From sequence record MH752840.1: 64,000 nt of DNA; one strand, written 5' to 3'. Positions 5,791-43,177 of this stretch are shown here, piece after piece. The position numbers were made by a program, and so were the translations under genes. A model generated the notes under the pieces. It did not search any database and was not told the origin of the DNA. It saw nothing but the letters and a program-made list of their open reading frames with translations. Each line of letters begins with the position of its first letter. The stretch's first letter is position 1. The stretch comes from Escherichia phage vB_EcoM-Pr121LW.

Positions 5791-6122
5791 TACCGCACCT
5801 CCTCAATAACTTCCACATCTGAACCAACAACAAATGCAAAAGGACAGGTTTCATGAAAGACATCCGGATCGCCGCCAAGCTTGCTAACAATTTCTCCACC
5901 ATTAATAAACACAAGCTCACCGATATTCATCAGATTGCTGAAATAGTATCCATAATGATTAAAGAATGCAGCGGGGTCAGGTAGACTAGTAGCCTCAAGC
6001 ACTACATCGGTTGAGGTTACTTTCTTATCATAACCTCTCGCCTTTTGAGATGCAAGATCTGCAGAATCCTCAGGCGACCGGAGATGCACAGGAATTGTTT
6101 CACCAATAAAGCGTACTTTCAT
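5790..6122 (-). CDS. small acidic protein, paralog family B (start at MKVRF; track ORF to 6149)
   Basis: MKVRF N-terminus and SDVEVIEE C-terminus resemble 8009-8480 paralogs. Confidence 0.4.
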   Translation of the reverse strand: MKVRFIGETIPVHLRSPEDSADLASQKARGYDKKVTSTDVVLEATSLPDPAAFFNHYGYYFSNLMNIGELVFINGGEIVSKLGGDPDVFHETCPFAFVVGSDVEVIEEVR

Positions 6123-6126
6123 ATTA

Positions 6127-6390
6127 TCACCCAACAACCATAGCTTCAAAAGGAGTCATGAACGAATAAACGGCATCATCATCTGCTTCAGGGAATGCTC
6201 CCAAAGACTTCATATCTGAGCCCTTGACAAATACAAGGTTTTGATCAAAGGCTTCTTGGGGGTCAATCCGATACATATTTCGTAAAATATCGCTTACCTC
6301 CTCATCAAGAGGTGAGTATGCTGTGCACGTTTTTCCGATCAAGCTTTGAGAATCAGGGTATCCACCTGAAGTTTTAAAATAAACAATCAT
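6127..6390 (-). CDS. hypothetical protein
   Basis: ORF in operon. Confidence 0.35.
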   Translation of the reverse strand: MIVYFKTSGGYPDSQSLIGKTCTAYSPLDEEVSDILRNMYRIDPQEAFDQNLVFVKGSDMKSLGAFPEADDDAVYSFMTPFEAMVVG

Positions 6391-6481
6391 ATAGTATCAC
6401 CTCTGGTAAGAGATTGGGACTCCTTTCCCACAAATAATTACAAATCTTCCTTAGCGAGGAAGTATGCTAATCCAAGCAGGA

Positions 6482-6751
6482 TTATTCCTCTACAATCTCA
6501 TACACATCAGGAGTTACAATCAACTCTTCTCCGTTACCCGGTGCAACAAACACCACCAAGCCTTCAGGTGTGTGCTTTTTAGCCATCTCGATAACATCTT
6601 CTCGCAGAGCTGGCTCCATCAGATCAAAACCTTCACCCAGTGCATCACGAACTACCTTCATGTAGTCCACTGGTTGTGCTTCAACGATCATGCCTTCAAC
6701 CAGTCCACAGTTTTTGTCTGCCAGCTCAGTTTTGAATAATTTAATTTTCAT
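6482..6751 (-). CDS. small acidic protein, paralog family A
   Basis: MKIKLFK N-terminus, YEIVEE C-terminus. Confidence 0.45.
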   Translation of the reverse strand: MKIKLFKTELADKNCGLVEGMIVEAQPVDYMKVVRDALGEGFDLMEPALREDVIEMAKKHTPEGLVVFVAPGNGEELIVTPDVYEIVEE

Positions 6752-6888
6752 TTAGAGGTCTCCTCAATTATTTGATATTAATAGCCGTAACCTAACACAT
6801 TAACTACAACTGCGATTGCAAACATAATTTCAAAGCATGCAATCTCTACATTTGGGACTAATTTCTTAATCACGCCCATTATAGCACC

Positions 6889-7206
6889 TCATTCTCCAAA
6901 GTCAATCTTTACTTTGCCTTTCCCCTTACCTTTCTTTCCACCGCATTTAGCCAGCTGACGTGCTGCAACATCTACCATACGGTCAGTTGCCTCGTAAGCA
7001 TCGCTACCTTTAGCTTTGGCGATAACTTCTTTCCCAGAATTGTCAAAAATAAAAGCCATAACTTCCTGGTGATCATTTTCAACTTTTACACTCACACGTG
7101 CATAGTTGGCAGATGGGTGCAAACGCTCCAGTTTGGACATTTTGTGGGAAATGAAAGACACCATACCTTCAGTGATCTCTACGTTGCCAGTGATTTCAAT
7201 TTGCAT
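6889..7206 (-). CDS. hpf: ribosome hibernation promoting factor / RaiA (ribosomal S30AE family) homolog
   Basis: MQIEITGNVEITEGM... N-terminus and spacing of KLE, VKVE, AKG.D.Y.A.D, DV.ARQL match bacterial HPF/YfiA as recalled; lysine/glycine-rich tail. Confidence 0.65.
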   Translation of the reverse strand: MQIEITGNVEITEGMVSFISHKMSKLERLHPSANYARVSVKVENDHQEVMAFIFDNSGKEVIAKAKGSDAYEATDRMVDVAARQLAKCGGKKGKGKGKVKIDFGE

Positions 7207-30441: not shown

Positions 30442-31577
30442 ATTGCTCCAACATTTCTAAGAACGTTAACAAGTTTTGTTTGATCATTGAATGTTCGCTT
30501 CATATACAAACAGTCAAAAATTATACTCATCCATTGACCTACGGAAATTCTACGATCAATACCATTGAAGTCAGTATACTTAACAACACCTTTCGGGAAC
30601 CACTTCTTGTACTGATCAATAATAGCCACCCACATCTCTTTTGGAGTGCTGCACTGAGACAGCAGGTAGAATGCTGAGGCATCCCCGAACTTACCTTTAC
30701 CGATAAGTCCTTGATACGGCTTGATATTGTCAGCAGAGTCACCACACAGCATTTGGTATCCGAAGAACAGCATTCCGTAACCACCAACCTCTCCATTAGG
30801 CTTCATGAAGATGTTCCCCATACCGTTATCGATCAGCATAGGGGTTTCCCTTACAAAATCTCCCTTATCGTTTCGCATAGGATCGAACACAAGCCCCGGT
30901 AGTGTTCTTTGGTCCTTATCAATAGAGATAATAAACTTGTTGAACTTACCTGTTTTTTGGTAGTGGTTCCAACCTTCAAATTGCTGGATAGCTAACCAGT
31001 CGTCAGCCTCGATACCGTTGATCACTTGAGCATTATACTGCTTTTGGAGATACTGTCTTGCATCTCCAAGCAGCAGTGGTCGAAGGGTATTGTTACGGTT
31101 GGCTTTGTATCTTTCCGGCATTGGAAGATCTAGTCTGAAGTTACCTGTGCCTCCCAACACCCCGACACATCGCTCCTCCGGAATACCAAGATAGTTAAGA
31201 ACTGCATTTGCCTTACATTTTATTGTGTGCAAGCAGTTCTCTACTGGGTCAGGTGTTTGGATATCCAAGACATCAAAATCTTCACGTGTCCACGGAATAA
31301 ACTCCTTACCAGACTTTTTACATGCGGCTTCACGGTTGGTATTCTCAGCTTTTAACCAACCACCAACGGTGTTCTTCTGCCGACCCCAGAACTCTGTTCG
31401 TGTTTTAAACATCTTCTTACGTCCGGAGGCTTTGTGTGTTACCTCAATTGTCCTTTTTTCACAACTTGCCGCAGCTTGATATGCAACCTGGTCGAAGTCA
31501 TAATAAACTATAGCGTCAGGTTCGAGAAGATCAGCAAGACAATCTACAGATTCAATAAGTGGATATTCTCTACTCAA
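30438..31577 (-). CDS. 5'-3' exonuclease / flap endonuclease (FEN / RNase H family)
   Basis: GIEADDWLA and LCGDSADNIKPYQG (H3TH) motifs. Confidence 0.7.
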   Translation of the reverse strand: MSREYPLIESVDCLADLLEPDAIVYYDFDQVAYQAAASCEKRTIEVTHKASGRKKMFKTRTEFWGRQKNTVGGWLKAENTNREAACKKSGKEFIPWTREDFDVLDIQTPDPVENCLHTIKCKANAVLNYLGIPEERCVGVLGGTGNFRLDLPMPERYKANRNNTLRPLLLGDARQYLQKQYNAQVINGIEADDWLAIQQFEGWNHYQKTGKFNKFIISIDKDQRTLPGLVFDPMRNDKGDFVRETPMLIDNGMGNIFMKPNGEVGGYGMLFFGYQMLCGDSADNIKPYQGLIGKGKFGDASAFYLLSQCSTPKEMWVAIIDQYKKWFPKGVVKYTDFNGIDRRISVGQWMSIIFDCLYMKRTFNDQTKLVNVLRNVGAI

Positions 31578-31878
31578 AGCCCCTCCTGTTAGTTATTCTG
31601 CAAGATGGTTGGATGCTGTAATGAAATGCATCATCACTCTCTGCAATAAGTGACTCAACATCCCAATACTTTTCAAAAAGGAACGGATTAGACCCCCAGT
31701 GGTGGGTTATTTTCATCAAGGAGTCTGGTATCATATAACCACAGATCTTAATTACATCACCCGGTTGAATTGTGTTTTCATGAAGGTTTTTTGCCTTCTT
31801 CAGAATCATACCTTTGTGATTCTCGTTTGCATACAACTGGACGATATCTTTATCTTCAACAATAAAAATTTTAAGCAT
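31570..31878 (-). CDS. hypothetical protein
   Basis: ORF. Confidence 0.35.
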   Translation of the reverse strand: MLKIFIVEDKDIVQLYANENHKGMILKKAKNLHENTIQPGDVIKICGYMIPDSLMKITHHWGSNPFLFEKYWDVESLIAESDDAFHYSIQPSCRITNRRGFE

Positions 31879-31937: not shown

Positions 31938-32231
31938 TCAAGACTTTTTAGTCTTTCTTGGAGAGCTTTTTGTTGATCTTTTTCTTTTGTGGTAAATTCC
32001 AAGTGCAGCATTTTCTTGGGCACACGTTTTAACGGTTTTTAGATCAGAGCTTTCAGCTTTAGGTAGATTAAGCTCCCACCAACCCAACCAGTAAAGCTCT
32101 GATTCCGACAGCTGCTCAGATTCAGACTTCCGATACAAGGCTTGCATACCTCTGATGATATCGTCCAAAGGTGTATCGAATACAAAAGCTGTCTTATCAA
32201 ATTTCTCTTTTACAGGTTTCTTAGCCATCAA
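31938..32231 (-). CDS. hypothetical protein with basic C-terminus
   Basis: ORF. Confidence 0.3.
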   Translation of the reverse strand: MMAKKPVKEKFDKTAFVFDTPLDDIIRGMQALYRKSESEQLSESELYWLGWWELNLPKAESSDLKTVKTCAQENAALGIYHKRKRSTKSSPRKTKKS

Positions 32232-32685
32232 GGTAACCCTCTATCCACGAAAAGTCAGTCTTCCATTCTGGAACTTTACTAAGCTCACGCCACTCTGCAA
32301 AGCAGTCTCGGTAATAGGCCTCCGCCATACCCTTGGTGATCTTATTCACCTTAGCTAACTGACTAACTGCCTGAGCATACTTCCCACGGATATTTGCTAA
32401 ACCAGGATGCACCGATGTGTGACAATCCGGGCACAACGCTATCAGTCCGACAAGCCGGATCACTCCCTCTTCGAAAGTGTAAAGTTCATGACACTCAACT
32501 GGATGTTTGCTGCCTTTACCTCCGCACACCTCGCAAGTGTAGTTTGCTTCTCTGTAGCACTTCTTACGGATCTTATCCCACTCACTCTTCTTCACAGCGT
32601 TTCGGAGGTTATTATACCAAGCTGTTTCTGGGATCAGTTGCACAATAAGCCTGCGTTCAGACTTCATTAAACGTCCGTCTTCCAC
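32221..32685 (-). CDS. putative HNH-family endonuclease (free-standing)
   Basis: CEVCGG...HPVECHELY...CPDCH metal-binding pattern. Confidence 0.4.
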   Translation of the reverse strand: MEDGRLMKSERRLIVQLIPETAWYNNLRNAVKKSEWDKIRKKCYREANYTCEVCGGKGSKHPVECHELYTFEEGVIRLVGLIALCPDCHTSVHPGLANIRGKYAQAVSQLAKVNKITKGMAEAYYRDCFAEWRELSKVPEWKTDFSWIEGYLDG

Positions 32686-33558: not shown

Positions 33559-34842
33559 TCATTCAAGCACCTCCCAAGTGTCTGGGTTAACATTTCGGAC
33601 GCAGATACCGACAGGGAATTGGTAGTTGTTGTCTTCTGTCCTTGCTTGGTATTTGAAGGTGACAAACTTGCCGATCATTTCCTGCATCCTGTCATAGCTA
33701 CGCTCCTCGTGCGTGCCTTTCATCTTCATTTTAACAACAACACCTTCCTTGTCAACACAGATAAGAACACCTTCATCATTCTTATCTTTCTCAACGTCAA
33801 TAACTTTCACCTCTGCGTCGTTGAACTTTTTCCATTTCAATGCTTCAGATGTTCGCTGACCGTACTCGTATTTACCGCAGAAATTACGCATGATAGTACC
33901 TTCATATCCTTCGGACATGAATATACCAACAGATTCTTCGCAATGATCAACTGTGTACGCAAGCTCTGCGTCAACAACCTTGATATGATCAAGCATCAGA
34001 GTGGTAACGGTATCCTCTGCATCCATAAGATCCTTGCAGCGTCCAGACTCTGTTTCTGGATCCCACCACACCTTGTCGCTAGGAATATCAAAAATGTGAT
34101 ACTCCAGATCGTAGCTACAGTACCCACCGTAACGCAAATCATCACGAACAGGCTCAACATCGACAGGAATATCTACCTTGTTGAAGTTTTTGTATGTTGA
34201 TAAGCCTGCCTTAATTGCGGCATGACGGCGTTTTTTATCTGCCTCATAGTCTTTATCGATCTCGGCCTGAATCTCTTCCTGTGTGCGCCACCGTTTAGCA
34301 AGAGACACTATTTTCTGCAAAGGAAGACCATGAATGTATAGTTCCCCATCAAGTTGTTTAATACCAGTGGTAGAATGGAAAGAACGAAGTTGCTCTAAAA
34401 GCTTTCCTTGAATAGGGTAGGACTTATTACCACGGGAAATAAATTTAGGCTCACCATTTTGGAAAACAACAAGCAGACGAAGGCCATCTAACTTACGCAA
34501 GATCCAGCAAGGTAATTTAAGTGCCTTGCCACGCTTCAGGTAGTCATGCACCAGCATGGGTAAAAGGTCAACACCCTGCTCGCAATCTTCCATGTTTTCA
34601 ACATACCCCAGACGGACTTGTTTTTCCCACTTGCTGATAGCCTCAAGCTCGGCCTGTTGCTCAGCTGTAGTCTCATTGGCACGACCTACGTTCTTAGGTG
34701 TGCATACCGTCTCTTTGTACTGCAATTTACCGTCAAGCTTGCCAAACTCTACGATAACCTTTTCGCCATCAGTGAATACTTTCCACTGTTGGTAGCTGCC
34801 ATCTTTGTTCAGTGCGTACAGTGTTGTTTTGATTTGATGCAT
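33559..34842 (-). CDS. ATP-dependent DNA ligase
   Basis: KLDGLR (motif I), EGYEGTIMRN (motif IV), LKWKKF (motif V). Confidence 0.8.
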   Translation of the reverse strand: MHQIKTTLYALNKDGSYQQWKVFTDGEKVIVEFGKLDGKLQYKETVCTPKNVGRANETTAEQQAELEAISKWEKQVRLGYVENMEDCEQGVDLLPMLVHDYLKRGKALKLPCWILRKLDGLRLLVVFQNGEPKFISRGNKSYPIQGKLLEQLRSFHSTTGIKQLDGELYIHGLPLQKIVSLAKRWRTQEEIQAEIDKDYEADKKRRHAAIKAGLSTYKNFNKVDIPVDVEPVRDDLRYGGYCSYDLEYHIFDIPSDKVWWDPETESGRCKDLMDAEDTVTTLMLDHIKVVDAELAYTVDHCEESVGIFMSEGYEGTIMRNFCGKYEYGQRTSEALKWKKFNDAEVKVIDVEKDKNDEGVLICVDKEGVVVKMKMKGTHEERSYDRMQEMIGKFVTFKYQARTEDNNYQFPVGICVRNVNPDTWEVLE

Positions 34843-35406: not shown

Positions 35407-35468
35407 AACTAACTACCTCGCTGCATACTTTCCATAATAAGTAAAGCCGGGATTACCCGGCTATGTTG

Positions 35469-36182
35469 TCAAATAGACTCTGTTACATCCTTGAAGCTCG
35501 AAGGCTTCATGATCTTACCTTTACTGTCAAGGAATATGATAACTTTATTACCGTTGTAGAACTCTTCCTTAGCAACAAAACCTTCGTAGCGACCACCAAA
35601 ACGACGCTCAAGATCTTTAATCTCCAACTCGATGAGTTGTTCAGCAGGCATATCTGCACTGGCACCGTGTGAATGCCGTAGATGGTTGATCCGTGCAAAC
35701 TTACTGTCATTAGATTTGAGAACCTTCCGCATCATCCCACACACATCGCCGCGAAGCTGGAACAGCAAAGCTGTTGACAACTCCGCTAAGCGGTAAGCTG
35801 ACGCTCTTTGCTTGGATGTGTTTTTCGCAGCGATCAGTGTATCATAGAACTCACCAATCTTGAACTTAAGACCTCGTGGATTATCAAACAGGTTTGACCA
35901 CTTTTCGTGATTGTCATTAACAAGATAGGCGGCATAACTTGTGACAACGTGAAGATCGCAGGCCTCTTTTAACAGGTGATCTCCACCATCACCTTTCTCC
36001 AGCTCTTCCAAAACCTCATTGAACTCTTCCTCAATGAAGCTAAGCTGTAATTCGAATGGTGTGTATGATTTTTTCACTTTAGCTGCCACACGGTTCCAGT
36101 TTTCCACCCAGTTGGCAGACCAAAGGTAGTTTTCAGGCTGAGACAGTTTTTCCAGGTTGTCGATCAGTTTAGTATTCAGCAT
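35469..36182 (-). CDS. putative MazG-like nucleotide pyrophosphohydrolase
   Basis: FIEEEFNEVLEELEKGD...LLKEACDL resembles the MazG EExxE...D metal-binding helices. Confidence 0.35.
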   Translation of the reverse strand: MLNTKLIDNLEKLSQPENYLWSANWVENWNRVAAKVKKSYTPFELQLSFIEEEFNEVLEELEKGDGGDHLLKEACDLHVVTSYAAYLVNDNHEKWSNLFDNPRGLKFKIGEFYDTLIAAKNTSKQRASAYRLAELSTALLFQLRGDVCGMMRKVLKSNDSKFARINHLRHSHGASADMPAEQLIELEIKDLERRFGGRYEGFVAKEEFYNGNKVIIFLDSKGKIMKPSSFKDVTESI

Positions 36183-36195
36183 TAAAGGTCTCCTT

Positions 36196-36957
36196 TTAAA
36201 GTTCCATAAAGTTTTCTACAGTTTCAATAAATGCTTTATCAGAGAAAGCGTCAACAGCACCGTTAAACCATACAGGGATCCCGCGATCCTCATATTGATA
36301 AAGGTCGCTACGTGAAATGCCACTTCCATCTGCACTCTGCGAGTCATACTTGTTTACAATCAGCAGTTTTGTGCCTTTACAAGTAGCAGGAAACAATTCC
36401 CAGTTAAAATTAATAACTGTGTTAGAACAACCTACCAGGATCACCATATCATTGCTTGTGAGAGATGTCAACAGGTCATACATGTCTGTATACTTAGGAG
36501 CAACCTCACCGAAGAACACTACATTAGGCTTAACCCAGGTATACTTGCCTGTATCTACCTCCGTATATCCGATATTTTTAATTACATCGTTACCTTCAGC
36601 ATCTTCGTAGGTGATTTCAGGCAAATACCCGTGGACATGTAAAATATCTTCATGTTTTACACCAGCACGCTCCAGCAAATCATCTACATTGGTGGTAAGG
36701 TTGATCACACGACCAGACCAGCGGGAATACCACTCAGCGATCCGAAGATGTGCAAGGTTAGGATCAACACTGCCCAGAGCTACACGACGTGCATTGTAAA
36801 AGTCATGCACCTTATAGTAGTTCTTGGCAAAGGTGTGGATGTTGCACACCTCATCGATGCTGAAATTCTCCCACATTGCAGTGCTACCAGATCGGAAAGT
36901 GGGAATACCAGATTCAGCGCTCAAACCGGCACCGGAGATAATAATCAGTCGTCGCAT
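36196..36957 (-). CDS. Sir2/CobB-family NAD-dependent protein, lacking the zinc-binding cysteines
   Basis: GAGLSAESGIPTFR, FYNARR, NLTTNVDDLLERAG, HVHG and VVFFGE motifs in sirtuin order; no CxxC pairs. Confidence 0.7.
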   Translation of the reverse strand: MRRLIIISGAGLSAESGIPTFRSGSTAMWENFSIDEVCNIHTFAKNYYKVHDFYNARRVALGSVDPNLAHLRIAEWYSRWSGRVINLTTNVDDLLERAGVKHEDILHVHGYLPEITYEDAEGNDVIKNIGYTEVDTGKYTWVKPNVVFFGEVAPKYTDMYDLLTSLTSNDMVILVGCSNTVINFNWELFPATCKGTKLLIVNKYDSQSADGSGISRSDLYQYEDRGIPVWFNGAVDAFSDKAFIETVENFMEL

Positions 36958-36965
36958 AAGTGTCC

Positions 36966-37316
36966 TCAGTAGATGTTTTGTTTAATCTCTATTCCAAACT
37001 TCTTGAATGAGTCAGCAGCAAGCATAAATTTACGAGCTGCCGATGGATTAGAAGTATGTACGAAAATCTTCACGTTGTCAATCACTGGAGGCTTACCGAA
37101 TACAAATTTTTCCTCCAACATGGATAGGCAATCGTATCCTTCGAATACTTCTCCTAGGTCGTTGTCCATATGCCACTCAGAAACGCGTCTGTAGAGCTTT
37201 CCCTTATCGTTAATAAAATCCATAAACTCTGAGGAATTCTTCAGCCAAATAGCGTCTGGGAGTCCATAATTTGACGGATCTCTCAAATCATCCAGCCACA
37301 CAATCCACTTCTTCAT
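36966..37316 (-). CDS. hypothetical protein, possibly co-functional with the Sir2-like gene
   Basis: ORF with 4-nt overlap to RNA ligase gene. Confidence 0.35.
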   Translation of the reverse strand: MKKWIVWLDDLRDPSNYGLPDAIWLKNSSEFMDFINDKGKLYRRVSEWHMDNDLGEVFEGYDCLSMLEEKFVFGKPPVIDNVKIFVHTSNPSAARKFMLAADSFKKFGIEIKQNIY

Positions 37317-38248
37317 TGCATATAGTCCTCGTTGTGGAAATAGTAGTCCAGTATCTCACGACGCTCCTGCTCTAATAAGCAATTCCACACATCTTCTGTA
37401 TAGTTGCTACGAATAAATTTTACCATACCGTAAAACTCTTCGTCAACACGTTTAAAGATATCATCATCCCAAATCTTCCAAGCTTTACCCCTCATTACTG
37501 CCTTCCGTGCCAGATAGTATGGAGACTTGATCTTCAGCTGCAGATCATAAGGGTAGTAAGGCTTACGAATCATATACCCTTCACCTCTTGTTTCTGCAGC
37601 TAATTCTTTTGCATAGCTGAACGGAATTTCACGCACAGTGTGAGGACGTTTTGCACCAAGGTATTTGGCAATCCCATCTAAAGCTGCTTCTGGTAGCATT
37701 ATTCCAGAATCATTATATCTGCAACCTATCAAATATGCGCCATGATCTTCCTGAACAATATGCGGATCTGAAGGGTGGCAAATTTCAAACATGAATGTCA
37801 TGTTTTCATTGCCCATAACCTTCTTGATAAGATCTAAATTACCACATTGCTCCTTGATGGTTTCTTTTGCGAGGTTACAATATGGGGAATCAAGAGACCC
37901 GGTTGTTGAGAACAATAGTTCACCTTTATGAGATGATACCACACCGAGGAATCCGTTCTTTTTCTCTACCGCAGTAACAAGTTTACTGTCCGGTAGGTTG
38001 GTGGAGTTTTCTCCTAAGTTGAATACTTTTGTGAAAGGCCATGCCACAACATTCCCCTCATTGCCAACAACAATACCTCGGCACTCCAGTAAACGCGGAG
38101 ACAAATGCCACAGATCGTTGTAGAATACTTTTCTGGCATATTTATAGATCTTTAATCCAAGATCTGGATAATACCGACTGGTTACAAGACCTTTGTCTAC
38201 TAGGTCATCTGCATTAAAATACTTCATCATACGTTCCTCATTTGTCAT
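37313..38248 (-). CDS. RNA ligase (Rnl2-like nucleotidyltransferase)
   Basis: EKKNGF (motif I-like KxNG), EGYMIRKP (motif IV), LKIKSPYY (motif V). Confidence 0.5.
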   Translation of the reverse strand: MTNEERMMKYFNADDLVDKGLVTSRYYPDLGLKIYKYARKVFYNDLWHLSPRLLECRGIVVGNEGNVVAWPFTKVFNLGENSTNLPDSKLVTAVEKKNGFLGVVSSHKGELLFSTTGSLDSPYCNLAKETIKEQCGNLDLIKKVMGNENMTFMFEICHPSDPHIVQEDHGAYLIGCRYNDSGIMLPEAALDGIAKYLGAKRPHTVREIPFSYAKELAAETRGEGYMIRKPYYPYDLQLKIKSPYYLARKAVMRGKAWKIWDDDIFKRVDEEFYGMVKFIRSNYTEDVWNCLLEQERREILDYYFHNEDYMQ

Positions 38249-38291
38249 TTTGTCAGTCTATCCTGCCACACAAATAACCTAGTGTCAACAC

Positions 38292-38320
38292 TTGAAATTA
38301 ACAAAACAGTTAGGTATACT
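38292..38320 (+). promoter_or_regulatory. sigma70-like promoter TTGAAA-17-TATACT
   Basis: Hexamers at 38292-38297 and 38315-38320 in the divergent intergenic region. Confidence 0.5.
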
Positions 38321-38348
38321 ATCATTAAAATTAAAACGGAGGATTGCT

Positions 38349-38759
38349 ATGTCTAAAATGCTATATATCGTGCGTGGTCTGCCAGGGTCTGGCAAATCAA
38401 CACTGGCAAATGCGCTATCTTTAGAAGGTCTGTATCCACATTTTGAGAATGACATGTTTTGGTATGACGATGACGGCAATTACAACTGGGATGCAAGTAA
38501 AGTAACACTCGCAGCAAAATGGTGCAAAGATAACGTAGAAGATATGATGCGTATGGGATACGACCGTATCGTGGTAAGTAATACGTTTACAAAAGAAAAA
38601 CATGTGCAGGAATATGTTGACATGGCAATCAGTCATGGGTATAGTTATACCGTAATCGTGGTTGAAAACCGCCACGGTAATAAAAGCATTCATGATGTTC
38701 CAGACAAGGTTGTGGATCGTATGGAACGCCAGCTTAAAAACTGCATTAAACTTAAATGA
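38349..38759 (+). CDS. P-loop kinase, polynucleotide-kinase-like
   Basis: GGAGG RBS 6 nt before ATG; Walker A GLPGSGKST; track ORF starts at a TTG that is the promoter -35. Confidence 0.5.
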   Translation: MSKMLYIVRGLPGSGKSTLANALSLEGLYPHFENDMFWYDDDGNYNWDASKVTLAAKWCKDNVEDMMRMGYDRIVVSNTFTKEKHVQEYVDMAISHGYSYTVIVVENRHGNKSIHDVPDKVVDRMERQLKNCIKLK

Positions 38760-38766
38760 GGAATGT

Positions 38767-39321
38767 ATGAAATACTTTGTAACAAGCGATACGCACTTTC
38801 TCCACCAGCGGGTCATGGAGTTTGATTCATGTCAAAAACACAGATCTCAATATGATCACAATCTTGACAGTATGAATGCGGGAATCATCACCGAGTGGAA
38901 CTCCGTTGTGTCACCTGCAGACACTGTGTTCCACCTGGGAGATATTGCGTGCACTAATGATAAGAATATCAACAACTTACTTCCAGATATTCTAAATATG
39001 TTGAACGGACATATTATTCTTGTTCGTGGCAACCATGACACAAGGACGACTGTCAGAATTATGAAAGAGTTCGGTCATGAGGTTGTAGATTATTACGAGC
39101 TTCGCCACAACAAGAATTTGATCTGTATGAGCCATTACCAGTTTGCAAAGTGGAACAGAAAGCCTCACGGATCAGTCCAACTGTTCGGTCATGCTCACGG
39201 AACCACACAACAGTTGTTTGGCAGGCAGCTTGATGTCGGTTGGGATGTGTGGGGGAGACTCTTACCATTAGAAGAGGCATACCGTATTGCAATGAGTTTT
39301 GATATTGACAGCAGGGAGTAA
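38767..39321 (+). CDS. calcineurin-like metallophosphoesterase
   Basis: DTHF (motif I), GDIACTND (II), GNHD (III), GHAH. Confidence 0.7.
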   Translation: MKYFVTSDTHFLHQRVMEFDSCQKHRSQYDHNLDSMNAGIITEWNSVVSPADTVFHLGDIACTNDKNINNLLPDILNMLNGHIILVRGNHDTRTTVRIMKEFGHEVVDYYELRHNKNLICMSHYQFAKWNRKPHGSVQLFGHAHGTTQQLFGRQLDVGWDVWGRLLPLEEAYRIAMSFDIDSRE

Positions 39322-39719: not shown

Positions 39720-39794
39720 ACCAGTAAAAACTTAAATATCTGTACTATAAGGGTTTGTATGTTTTATGTTCACCATGGAACAGAAACTATTAAC

Positions 39795-39875
39795 TGTCCG
39801 TGATACGGACACCACTGTCCGTCACGCGGACACATCTGCCCGTAATACGGACACTAACTGTCCGTGATACGGACA
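39795..39875. repeat. Four phased copies of a 17-bp palindrome TGTCCG-N5-CGGACA (39795-39811, 39816-39832, 39837-39853, 39859-39875)
   Basis: Direct reading; centre-to-centre spacing 21/21/22 bp; copy 3 has one substitution (TGCCCG). Confidence 0.7.
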
Positions 39876-39914
39876 CATAAAGAATATAACTAAAATAACT
39901 AAATAATAAAAAAT

Positions 39915-40000
39915 AAAAGATCTAGTACTTATGGTACTAAGTACATATACTTAACTTATGTAGAATATACTAGATCCTAAGTACCATGTTTTAAATTTAT
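39915..40000. promoter_or_regulatory. AT-rich region with nested inverted repeats (candidate origin or regulatory site)
   Basis: AGATCTAGTA...TACTAGATC and ATGGTACTAAG...CTAAGTACCAT inverted repeats in an AT-rich stretch. Confidence 0.35.
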
Positions 40001-40019
40001 TACTTTCTATAGGTAGTGT

Positions 40020-40260
40020 CGGCCCTTCATTGGCACTCGCCTACGAGGGGCGAGATGCCGGGCCTCCATAGTGCACACATGCAGGTCTGTTAACATGTGT
40101 GGGAGCGAAGCGGCGCAGGCCAAAGGCCGAGCACTAATGTGGACCACCGACGAAAGCTTGCCAGCGCCGTAAGGAGTCGGTTGAGAGCCTCCCGCGCGAG
40201 TTTGGATAAAGTTTATGTGTGGAAACGGACAATGAGGCCCCTAAATCGCTCCACAGCCAT
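40020..40260 (+). ncRNA. GC-rich structured noncoding island (candidate structured RNA, class unknown)
   Basis: No ORF of 60 aa or more; several perfect hairpins (CTCGCC/GGCGAG, CACACATG/CATGTGTG, GGCC-AAA-GGCC); GC content well above neighbours. Confidence 0.25.
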
Positions 40261-40358
40261 ATAAACTATACCAAGTAAGGCAATCGCACCAGTTTGATAG
40301 AAAAGCTCGTTACAAAGCGATACAGCGAGTTTTTCTATAACTTGAAGAGGAGGCAGCT

Positions 40359-42236: not shown

Positions 42237-42311
42237 GCCCTGTTAGCTTAGTGGATAAAGCAGCGGCCTTCTAAGCCGTTGACACTGGTTCGAGTCCAGT
42301 ACGGGGTGCCA
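42237..42311 (+). tRNA. tRNA-Arg (anticodon TCT)
   Basis: Manual cloverleaf: 7-bp acceptor stem, D-stem GCTT/AAGC, anticodon loop CTTCTAA, T-loop TTCGAGT, encoded CCA. Confidence 0.75.
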
Positions 42312-42442
42312 AGTTCTTTTTAATGTAGCTTACTTTAGCAGAGTAAATCTTCGGCAAGTGGCGGTAACCACTTTTACCGATACCTCATAGTTAGTGGTGA
42401 GAACACTAGCTATTTTAAAAAGAATTTAAATATTAGTATTTA

Positions 42443-42530
42443 GGTGAGTTAATTCCGTAGGGGTAGCGGGGCAGACTGTAAATCTGTTATCATTGCGATT
42501 CGGGTGGTTCGACTCCATCACTCACCACCA
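42443..42530 (+). tRNA. tRNA-Tyr (anticodon GTA), long variable arm
   Basis: Perfect 7-bp acceptor stem GGTGAGT/ACTCACC, anticodon arm GCAGA-CTGTAAA-TCTGT, T-loop TTCGACT, CCA; 88 nt. Confidence 0.7.
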
Positions 42531-42644
42531 AATTTATATTTTTAAATGCATAAATTATACAGATAATGGCATTGATATTTATCGTCGTTTATACTAGTCA
42601 CTAACTGCTCGAAAATCAGTGTCATTATCAGTATTGTTTATAAA

Positions 42645-42735
42645 AGAGGGTAGGGAGCAATGGTGCTCAAGCGGTCTTGAAAACCGTCCCGTTGAGGATG
42701 ACTCGATGATGGTTCGATTCCATTACCCTCTGCCA
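42645..42735 (+). tRNA. tRNA-Ser (anticodon TGA), long variable arm
   Basis: Perfect 7-bp acceptor stem AGAGGGT/ACCCTCT, anticodon loop CTTGAAA, T-loop TTCGATT, CCA; 91 nt. Confidence 0.7.
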
Positions 42736-42833
42736 TATTGTTGACCTTGTAATTAAGCGAAAGCCGGAAGCAGAACCGGATTATCAAATGTTACAGTCGT
42801 CATCGCCGACTAGCAACATTGTCAACATACTGA

Positions 42834-42932
42834 GCTAGGTAAGCCCTTTGGCAAGGGCGAGGATTTTTAATCCTGAAAATAGACGAGGTAGTCGTTGAAT
42901 ACATAGGTGGTTCGATTCCACCACCTAGCACC
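42834..42932 (+). tRNA. atypical tRNA-like gene (anticodon loop TTTTTAA, possibly Lys-TTT), ~30-nt extra region, no full CCA
   Basis: Acceptor GCTAGGT/ACCTAGC, D-arm GCCC-TTTGGCAA-GGGC, T-arm GGTGG-TTCGATT-CCACC are clean; anticodon stem and variable region are irregular. Confidence 0.35.
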
Positions 42933-42937
42933 TTTTT

Positions 42938-43013
42938 GCTGATGTAGCACAATTGGTAGTGCAATTGATTTGTAATCAATAGGTTGCAGGTTCAAGTCCT
43001 GCCATCAGCACCA
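42938..43013 (+). tRNA. tRNA-Thr (anticodon TGT)
   Basis: Acceptor GCTGATG/CATCAGC, D-stem GCAC/GTGC, anticodon arm ATTGA-TTTGTAA-TCAAT, T-loop TTCAAGT, CCA. Confidence 0.8.
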
Positions 43014-43014
43014 T

Positions 43015-43089
43015 GGCCCTGTAGCTGGAAGGTTCAAGCAAGCGACTCATAATCGCCAGACGGTGGTTCAATTCCACCCAGGGCCACCA
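43015..43089 (+). tRNA. tRNA-Met or tRNA-Ile2 (anticodon CAT), elongator type
   Basis: Acceptor GGCCCTG/CAGGGCC with G1-C72 pair, anticodon loop CTCATAA, T-arm GGTGG-TTCAATT-CCACC, CCA. Confidence 0.7.
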
Positions 43090-43100
43090 AATAGTAAATA

Positions 43101-43177
43101 CTCCGCGTAGCTCAGCTTGGTAGAGCGCCTGATTTGGGATCAGGAGGTCGAGTGTTCGAATCACTCCGTGGAGACCA
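43101..43177 (+). tRNA. tRNA-Pro (anticodon TGG)
   Basis: C1-G72 acceptor pair as in bacterial tRNA-Pro, D-stem GCTC/GAGC, anticodon arm CCTGA-TTTGGGA-TCAGG, T-loop TTCGAAT, CCA. Confidence 0.8.

Follow-up and report, generated by a model that had tools for sequence, protein, structure and literature searches.

What does a sirtuin contribute to a lytic coliphage when its gene stands among genes for RNA-end processing? The question is raised by a gene on the minus strand at 36196-36957 of a 64,000-nucleotide stretch of Escherichia phage vB_EcoM-Pr121LW (sequence record MH752840.1), the whole of which is referred to here as the window. The encoded protein is a Sir2-like protein without the zinc module, and its gene forms a tight unit with genes for a T4-type RNA ligase, a cyclic-phosphate-processing receiver-like protein (cREC) and a MazG-like nucleotide pyrophosphohydrolase. 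This arrangement is already annotated and has been published as a prediction, with the rV5-like group as prototype. The sirtuin is tentatively read here as one step in the phage's repair of tRNA or other RNA, acting through an RNA-phosphate mechanism, a proposal to which we give somewhat less than an even chance. What is new is limited to the pairing of zinc loss with a TQN-to-TTN change and to an acidic isoelectric point (pI), a caveat on the RNA hypothesis; the neighbourhood was described in 2022.

Motifs, predicted fold and class of the phage sirtuin

The translation contains GAGLSAESGIPTFR, FYNARR, TTNVDDL, HVHG and VVFFGE in this order, the five motifs from which an earlier note on this DNA had called a Sir2-like protein. 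The call holds: the Pfam SIR2 profile (PF02146) is matched over positions 1-178 of 180 with 98.2 bits against a cut-off of 24 (E 6.9e-28), a match far above chance level and a clear outcome of the profile search that the note had proposed. From the N-terminus, the sirtuin presents G9-A-G-x-S13, F21 and R22, Y54 and R57 (the YxxR pair of class III), T89 at the position usually held by Gln, N90, D92, the catalytic H109 with G110, and the KPNVVFFGE loop. The residues of G9-A-G-x-S13 are invariant or nearly so; F21, R22, N90, D92, H109 and G110 are invariant across an alignment of 59 diverse homologues, as are Y54 and R57, the position of R57 being Leu in jumbo-phage members. The FYNARR segment pairs with FYNARR of CobB and with FYHYRR of SIRT5. 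Judged from the alignments, the residues expected to bind nicotinamide adenine dinucleotide (NAD+) and to cleave off nicotinamide are all retained.

The AlphaFold model (AF2, with 59 diverse homologues as input) has a mean predicted local distance difference test score (pLDDT) of 91.2. Its top PDB matches in Foldseek are CobB (6rxq and 1s5p, about E 1e-18), Sir2Af1 of Archaeoglobus and SIRT5, with E values of about 1e-18 to 1e-15 and template modelling (TM) scores of 0.7-0.84, and the top 50 matches are all sirtuins. A sequence search against the PDB gives the same ranking (CobB 1s5p, E 3e-21; SIRT5, E 6e-21). With CobB and SIRT5 the protein shares the fold, the GAGxS motif, the Phe and Arg of the cofactor loop, the Asn and Asp, the catalytic His, the FGE loop and YxxR. 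It differs from them in several respects: identity is only about 25%, zinc-ligand cysteines are absent, Thr replaces the Gln of TQN, the C-terminus is extended (the model has a loop of low confidence there, at about residues 202-211), and the gene context is one of phage RNA repair. The clade probably derives from class III, CobB/SIRT5-like sirtuins and is predicted to bind NAD+.

The protein is not a CobB orthologue, as all seven NCBIfam models remain under their cut-offs (NF040867, 104 bits against 320; NF001753, 122.6 against 243). It belongs to the same Sir2 superfamily as the defence NADases ThsA, DSR1/2, SIR2-HerA and SIR2-APAZ; unlike them, it has no PADLOC match at E 0.01, reaches 13.2 bits with SIR2_2 (PF13289) against a cut-off of 24.5, has no sensor domain or partner, and is encoded by a phage within a repair operon. 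The comparison with ThsA/DSR-type domains that the note had recommended therefore rules out a defence-type SIR2, no profile of that kind being reached. Its suggestion of a counter-defence or host-takeover NAD enzyme survives in part: a role in phage-host conflict is plausible, but the analogy to ThsA/DSR NADases fails, the nearest proteins being CobB, Sir2Af1 and SIRT5. A SirTM-type pair is ruled out as well, because no Macro-domain gene adjoins the sirtuin gene, either in its operon or in the divergent gene pair beside it (Pfam, PHROG).

Loss of the zinc module together with the TQN glutamine

The only cysteines of the sirtuin are C38, C177 and C193, scattered along the chain and forming no CxxC, in agreement with the zinc-module loss reported earlier. 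CxxC is likewise found in none of 120 homologues (the best 120 of 951 in the database). In the alignment, the zinc-module cysteines of CobB face Tyr, other residues or gaps of the phage protein, and the alignment with SIRT5 breaks across residues 113-140. The zinc-ribbon segment of the model is still a three-stranded sheet (residues 110-118, 124-128 and 142-146), now built without cysteines.

The loss goes along with a second change. Among 72 relatives compared, every TTN- or TSN-type protein has 0-2 Cys in the zinc segment, and every TQN-type protein has 4-6. Given this clean pairing, zinc loss and the Gln-to-Thr replacement are taken as joint derived characters of the clade. This joint signature is a new detail, not found stated in the literature consulted on this clade. 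Two sister sirtuins of jumbo phages, in contigs L063 (6001-6552; 608 kb) and L064 (6001-6537; 279 kb), have 42% identity and retain TQN with 4-6 zinc-segment Cys; they therefore represent the state before zinc loss. Directly downstream of the sister sirtuin in L064 lies a nucleoside 2-deoxyribosyltransferase-like gene.

An operon with RNA-end enzymes

The sirtuin gene is the third of a four-gene unit on the minus strand, beside a divergent pair on the plus strand. In the order of transcription of each strand, the features are as follows.

37313..38248, minus strand: Rnl1-like (T4 RnlA family) RNA ligase, 311 residues, first gene of the unit (Pfam RNA_lig_T4_1 E 7e-15; PHROG 562 E 9e-66)
36966..37316, minus strand: cREC, cyclic-phosphate-processing receiver-like protein, 116 residues (Pfam PF20274 E 2e-14)
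36196..36957, minus strand: zinc-less sirtuin, 253 residues (Pfam SIR2 PF02146, as above; PHROG 2162 E 1.5e-108)
35469..36182, minus strand: MazG-like nucleotide pyrophosphohydrolase, 237 residues, last gene of the unit (PHROG 671 E 1.3e-21)
35445..35462, minus strand: intrinsic-terminator-like hairpin, AGCCGGG-TAAT-CCCGGCT with a T-rich tail, closing the four-gene unit (hairpin scan; a terminator is annotated in phage Murica)
38349..38759, plus strand: P-loop kinase, polynucleotide-kinase-like, 136 residues, divergent from the ligase (Pfam AAA_33 E 1e-10; PHROG 2071; PHROG 505 'polynucleotide kinase' E 4.7e-10)
38767..39321, plus strand: calcineurin-like metallophosphoesterase, 184 residues (Pfam Metallophos_2 E 1e-6; PHROG 547 E 2e-51; PDB 1xm7 E 5e-11)

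The junctions within the unit are short. The ATG of cREC and the TGA of the RNA ligase share the letters ATGA, which is the 4-nucleotide overlap that the earlier note had reported for the 116-residue gene, and this gene is tightly coupled to the sirtuin gene as well: 8 nucleotides with a GAGGA Shine-Dalgarno sequence separate the cREC stop from the sirtuin ATG. A further 13 nucleotides, again with a Shine-Dalgarno site, lead from the sirtuin stop to the MazG-like start. By its layout, the unit of Rnl1-like ligase, cREC, sirtuin and MazG-like protein is a tight operon whose genes are predicted to be co-expressed.

Some of these assignments have limits. The TIGR02308 match of the RNA ligase stays under its cut-off, and the PRA-PH match of the MazG-like protein in Pfam is sub-threshold (E 0.085); the translation of the latter shows the motif IEEEFNEVLEE...KEACDL, and Murica carries the label nucleotide pyrophosphohydrolase. 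Sequence searches of the PDB with the RNA ligase, the kinase and the MazG-like protein give zero matches, and the metallophosphoesterase has a sole match, Aquifex aq_1665. The metallophosphoesterase is a candidate for the enzyme that heals 2',3'-phosphate ends.

The partner described in the note as uncharacterised proves to be a named domain. cREC matches Pfam PF20274 (cREC_REC, 'cyclic-phosphate processing receiver domain') with 54.5 bits against a cut-off of 27, a family that Iyer et al. (2021; PMC7824862) defined by computation. Hydrolysis of cyclic phosphates by cREC is a prediction (PMC7824862; PMC9503650), and the literature search found no published structure or activity. The structure prediction advised for this protein yields a confident model (pLDDT 92.1) in which strands alternate with helices; the PDB folds closest to it belong to receiver domains such as that of Sln1, though the match is weak (E 0.01, TM about 0.57). 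Its acidic sites are D9/D10 after strand 1 and D51/D53 at the end of strand 3, with T88/S89 at the end of strand 4. Across 31 homologues, D9/D10 are nearly invariant (at least 90%), and D51, D53, H87, N90 and K96 are invariant.

The region is common among related phages. Murica (Escherichia phage, Vequintavirus, rV5-like) is 99.8% identical over 2.9 kb, and about 120 phage records exceed 90% identity. A Sir2 annotation is already present in about 120 near-identical phage genomes, and the Sir2-clade gene carries an annotation in about 1000 phage records. In the order of the window's minus strand, Murica is annotated with RNA ligase, hypothetical protein, Sir2 NAD-dependent deacetylase, nucleotide pyrophosphohydrolase and terminator; the divergent genes at 38349-38759 and 38767-39321 carry the labels P-loop ATPase and metallophosphoesterase.

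This gene set is the type 2 neighbourhood of Iyer, Burroughs, Anantharaman and Aravind (2022; Viruses 14:1977, PMC9503650, section 3.7.3), for which Escherichia phage V5 and Proteus phage Mydo serve as the prototypes. All six type 2 components (sirtuin, T4-like RNA ligase, cREC, kinase, MazG and calcineurin-like phosphoesterase) lie within 35469-39321; nothing essential differs, and the window is an instance of the type. Added here to that description are the pairing of zinc loss with TQN-to-TTN, the zinc-bearing jumbo sisters, the acidity and the counts of phage records. The context of RNA ligase, kinase, phosphoesterase and MazG, which carries most of the functional information, was overlooked in the earlier note.

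Recurrence of the linkage in other phages

Linkage was surveyed in 71 viral contigs encoding a relative of the sirtuin. Genes for the ligase, kinase, phosphoesterase, MazG-like protein and DNA ligase all lie within 6 kb in 12-14 of the 71, mostly from rV5-, Mydo- and phi92-like phages of about 135-153 kb. In contigs L023-L026, L031 and L059 (94-148 kb, mostly about 146 kb), the order on one strand is metallophosphoesterase ... Rnl1, cREC, kinase, Sir2, DNA ligase ... MazG. The kinase gene of Mydo-like loci sits between cREC and Sir2, and the gene for an ATP-dependent DNA ligase directly overlaps the 3' end of Sir2 (L023, 6765-8072).

A second arrangement is found in phage T5 (L073; NC_005859), whose Sir2 protein, T5.102, is 57% identical to the sirtuin of the window. 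Two genes downstream of T5.102 is a HAD_SAK_2 'Swiss-army-knife RNA repair' phosphatase (E 4e-20), matching type 3 of Iyer et al. Directly after the HAD_SAK_2 gene, T5.106 and T5.107 (6098-6928 of the L073 locus) are tandem paralogues with two DUF7415 repeats each. The third arrangement, matching type 1, is the cluster of the jumbo contig L062, with a 2H/Acb1-like protein, Sir2, a Nudt16-like Nudix protein, cREC (E 9e-25) and PIN-PhoH. Here the 2H-family gene directly upstream of the sirtuin (L062, 5507-5953) is matched better by anti-CBASS Acb1 (E 1.3e-15) than by the generic 2'-5' RNA ligase/2H family, and this Acb1-like protein is possibly part of a module that degrades signalling nucleotides. 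The linkage of the sirtuin to RNA-end and nucleotide enzymes recurs in three different gene arrangements, and the neighbours in the window and Mydo-like loci, in T5 and in L062 correspond to the three types of neighbourhood distinguished by Iyer et al. (2022).

A possible role in RNA repair

The published prediction is that the sirtuin strips 2'-phosphates from RNA with NAD+, in the manner of KptA/Tpt1, repairing RNA that has been cut by metal-independent nucleases (PMC9503650). In the pathway proposed for the window, such nucleases of the host would cut tRNA or other RNA, leaving 2',3'-cyclic phosphate and 5'-OH ends. The cyclic phosphate would be opened by cREC, by the metallophosphoesterase or by both, the 5'-OH would be phosphorylated by the kinase, and the break would be sealed by the Rnl1-like ligase. 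The sirtuin may then move the leftover 2'-phosphate onto NAD+, convergently with Tpt1/KptA, and the product, ADP-ribose cyclic phosphate, could be disposed of by cREC and a pyrophosphohydrolase (MazG here, Nudix in jumbo phages). To the observed domain identities, operon structure, catalytic conservation and recurring linkage, this pathway adds substrates and reactions that we infer.

In sirtuins, the acyl oxygen attacks C1', and attack by the His-activated 2'-OH then yields a 1',2'-bicyclic intermediate. PDB 4f56, a structure of SIRT5 with the bicyclic intermediate, is among the fold matches of the phage sirtuin model. For Tpt1, PMC11417386 describes attack of the 2'-PO4 on C1'' of NAD+ and then an attack by O2'', from which a 1'',2''-cyclic product results. 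A stepwise mapping of Tpt1 chemistry onto sirtuin chemistry is, by analogy, plausible. Tpt1/KptA is the proposed functional analogue, being NAD+-dependent, acting in two steps via a 1'',2''-cyclic ADP-ribose species and tied to RNA ligase pathways. The phage sirtuin, in contrast, has an unrelated fold, no sequence similarity to Tpt1/KptA and a pI of 4.9 against 9.4 for KptA, and such an activity is a prediction for sirtuins; as its model matches only sirtuin folds and KptA similarity is lacking, any relation to Tpt1/KptA is one of functional analogy only.

Stated in full, the mechanism is that the sirtuin acts as an NAD+-dependent RNA 2'-phosphotransferase or RNA-end ADP-ribosylating enzyme convergent with Tpt1, that cREC is a new metal-independent cyclic phosphodiesterase, and that zinc loss and the Gln-to-Thr change switch the substrate from acyl-lysine to RNA phosphate. 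We advance this detailed version still more tentatively, at roughly one chance in three.

The nearest precedent for the gene set is T4, where Pnkp and Rnl1 counter the anticodon nuclease PrrC. In the window, too, a lytic coliphage joins an Rnl1-family ligase with a 5'-kinase and with a phosphoesterase for the 3' end, but healing is split between separate kinase and metallophosphoesterase genes, with no fusion to a HAD phosphatase as in T4 Pnkp. T4 is not known to carry a sirtuin, cREC or MazG component.

Several observations weigh against a Tpt1-like role in RNA repair. Kinase, metallophosphoesterase and Rnl1-like ligase make up a complete T4-style heal-and-seal set that yields no 2'-phosphate, so a Tpt1-like step is not obviously needed, and the host E. 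coli has its own KptA. The clade is acidic (median pI 5.1, range 4.6-6.05) when set against E. coli KptA, an acidity unusual in an RNA-binding enzyme. The linkage is also uneven: ligase, kinase and cREC are absent within 6 kb at about 35 T5-like loci, phi92-like phages separate Sir2 and cREC by about 33 kb, and in several contigs of about 140-150 kb the neighbours of Sir2 have no Pfam match. Pfam scans of the Sir2 neighbours in L032, L046, L048 and L055 (about 28-153 kb) likewise give no informative domain, so the RNA-repair link is not extendable to those lineages. The literature searches on phage sirtuins or cREC found only two comparative papers, both of the Aravind laboratory, and no experimental study. 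Finally, the full deacylase active site is kept, including Y54/R57, so that a protein-deacylase role is equally compatible by sequence.

Alternative roles of the sirtuin

The last point bears on the alternative that survives best, a conventional NAD+-dependent protein lysine deacylase of the CobB/SIRT5 kind, possibly a desuccinylase, acting on host or phage proteins. It might, for example, strip acyl groups from the RNA and DNA ligases encoded nearby, at their active-site lysines, or from proteins of host metabolism or translation, and the RNA-repair neighbours would then reflect co-regulation and not a common substrate. The best sequence and fold matches are indeed all deacylases (CobB, SIRT5; Foldseek TM 0.73-0.84 for CobB), but the protein scores far under the NCBIfam CobB equivalog cut-offs (104 against 320 bits in one case). 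The catalytic His, the FGE loop and Y54/R57 are invariant in the enterobacterial phage clade; against this, jumbo-phage members have Leu in place of R57, and the zinc cysteines are lost together with the change of the near-universal TQNxD Gln to Thr in all clade members examined, which suggests altered function. The direct overlap of the sirtuin gene with the ATP-dependent DNA ligase gene in Mydo-like loci favours a deacylase, and so does the acidic pI, which is easier to reconcile with action on protein than with action on RNA. Recurrence beside RNA-end and nucleotide-processing enzymes in three unrelated arrangements points the other way. On this balance, a deacylase is considered possible but doubtful.

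Another alternative removes RNA from the scheme: sirtuin, cREC and MazG (Nudix in jumbo phages) would form a small-molecule NAD+/ADP-ribose module that makes or destroys a metabolite or immune signal, such as a cyclic-phosphate or cyclic ADP-ribose species of host defence. The pairing of cREC with a pyrophosphohydrolase beside the sirtuin in both the rV5-type (MazG-like) and the jumbo-type (Nudt16-like Nudix) loci fits such a module, as does the best match of the neighbouring 2H protein in jumbo phage to Acb1. The RNA ligase, polynucleotide-kinase-like protein, metallophosphoesterase and HAD_SAK_2 phosphatase, however, are RNA-end enzymes and not signal degraders, and no sensor or sponge-like partner is found. 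We also know of no sirtuin that makes or breaks cyclic ADP-ribose signals. Although Iyer et al. suggest that cREC may process ADP-ribose cyclic phosphate (PMC9503650; PMC7824862), which favours the module, it is judged improbable.

Very improbable is an enzyme for host takeover or counter-defence that works as a free NADase or ADP-ribosyltransferase, like the ThsA, DSR and SIR2-HerA effectors: defence SIR2 domains resemble the phage sirtuin in having no zinc module, and a putative NAD+-binding enzyme is indeed encoded by this lytic phage within a cluster of early or middle genes, but the PADLOC and SIR2_2 searches fail as described, the top fold matches are all canonical sirtuins, no Macro or antitoxin-like partner is present, and a drain on NAD+ would hurt a phage that needs it.

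Distribution of the clade and consequences of the RNA-repair prediction

Sir2-clade genes are present in 975 of 50,697 phage records, T5 included, mostly in phages of Escherichia (372 records so named), Salmonella (287) and Klebsiella. When 185,579 species genomes are scanned by pattern, a method that needs exact peptide patterns, one close relative turns up, on a 43-kb contig of a metagenome-assembled genome, along with three distant ones; with a single close relative there, the clade appears to be phage-restricted. KptA homologues are found in 98 phage records, and the ten organism names listed for them, covering 95 of the 98, include no Escherichia or Salmonella. In the window, tblastn with E. 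coli KptA detects no homologue (best E 0.58). Both results count in favour of the RNA-repair reading of the sirtuin. About 18-25 'Campylobacter phage' records of the MG0656xx series (for example MG065653, MG065654 and MG065676; host Campylobacter jejuni) are 96-100% identical to this region of the rV5-like E. coli phage, an indication that phages of that data set are mislabelled or contaminants.

If the RNA-repair prediction is true, sirtuin chemistry would reach from protein acyl-lysines to RNA phosphates, making this the first sirtuin to act on RNA. The clade would then represent a widespread phage counter to tRNA-cutting immunity, carried by about 2% of sequenced phages with T5 among them. 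Therapy cocktails make use of T5, rV5 and related phages, which in that case would possess an NAD+-dependent arm of RNA repair directed at anticodon nucleases of the host and at its other defences that cut RNA. The family is easily testable, as the proteins are small and soluble-looking and both T5 and the Vequintavirinae of the BASEL collection are genetically accessible.

Other features around the operon

About 3 kb from the RNA-repair genes, at 42237-43177, the window contains a tRNA cluster (Arg-TCT, Ser-TGA, Thr-TGT, Met-CAT and Pro-TGG). A tRNA-like gene of 99 nucleotides at 42834-42932 is given a 4-base anticodon by ARAGORN and is labelled 'tRNA-OTHER Asp|Gly' in Murica, where a tRNA-Tyr is also annotated at about 42314-42400, a position without an ARAGORN call. 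Between the operon and this cluster, some 640 bp (39720-40358) without a long open reading frame (ORF) follow a helix-turn-helix 'replication initiation protein' gene. The sign of the GC skew flips near 38 kb, coinciding with the strand switch between ligase and kinase (about 38249-38348).

Downstream of the operon, an ATP-dependent DNA ligase of 427 residues is encoded at 33559-34842 on the minus strand. Its N-terminal part is divergent, as the Pfam adenylation domain is matched only in the last third of the protein (residues 285-338). In the same leftward block and a few kb downstream, the Murica annotation places a small 'transposase' ORF (31570-31878) and an HNH endonuclease ORF (32221-32685), which are possibly mobile insertions in the replication/repair module.

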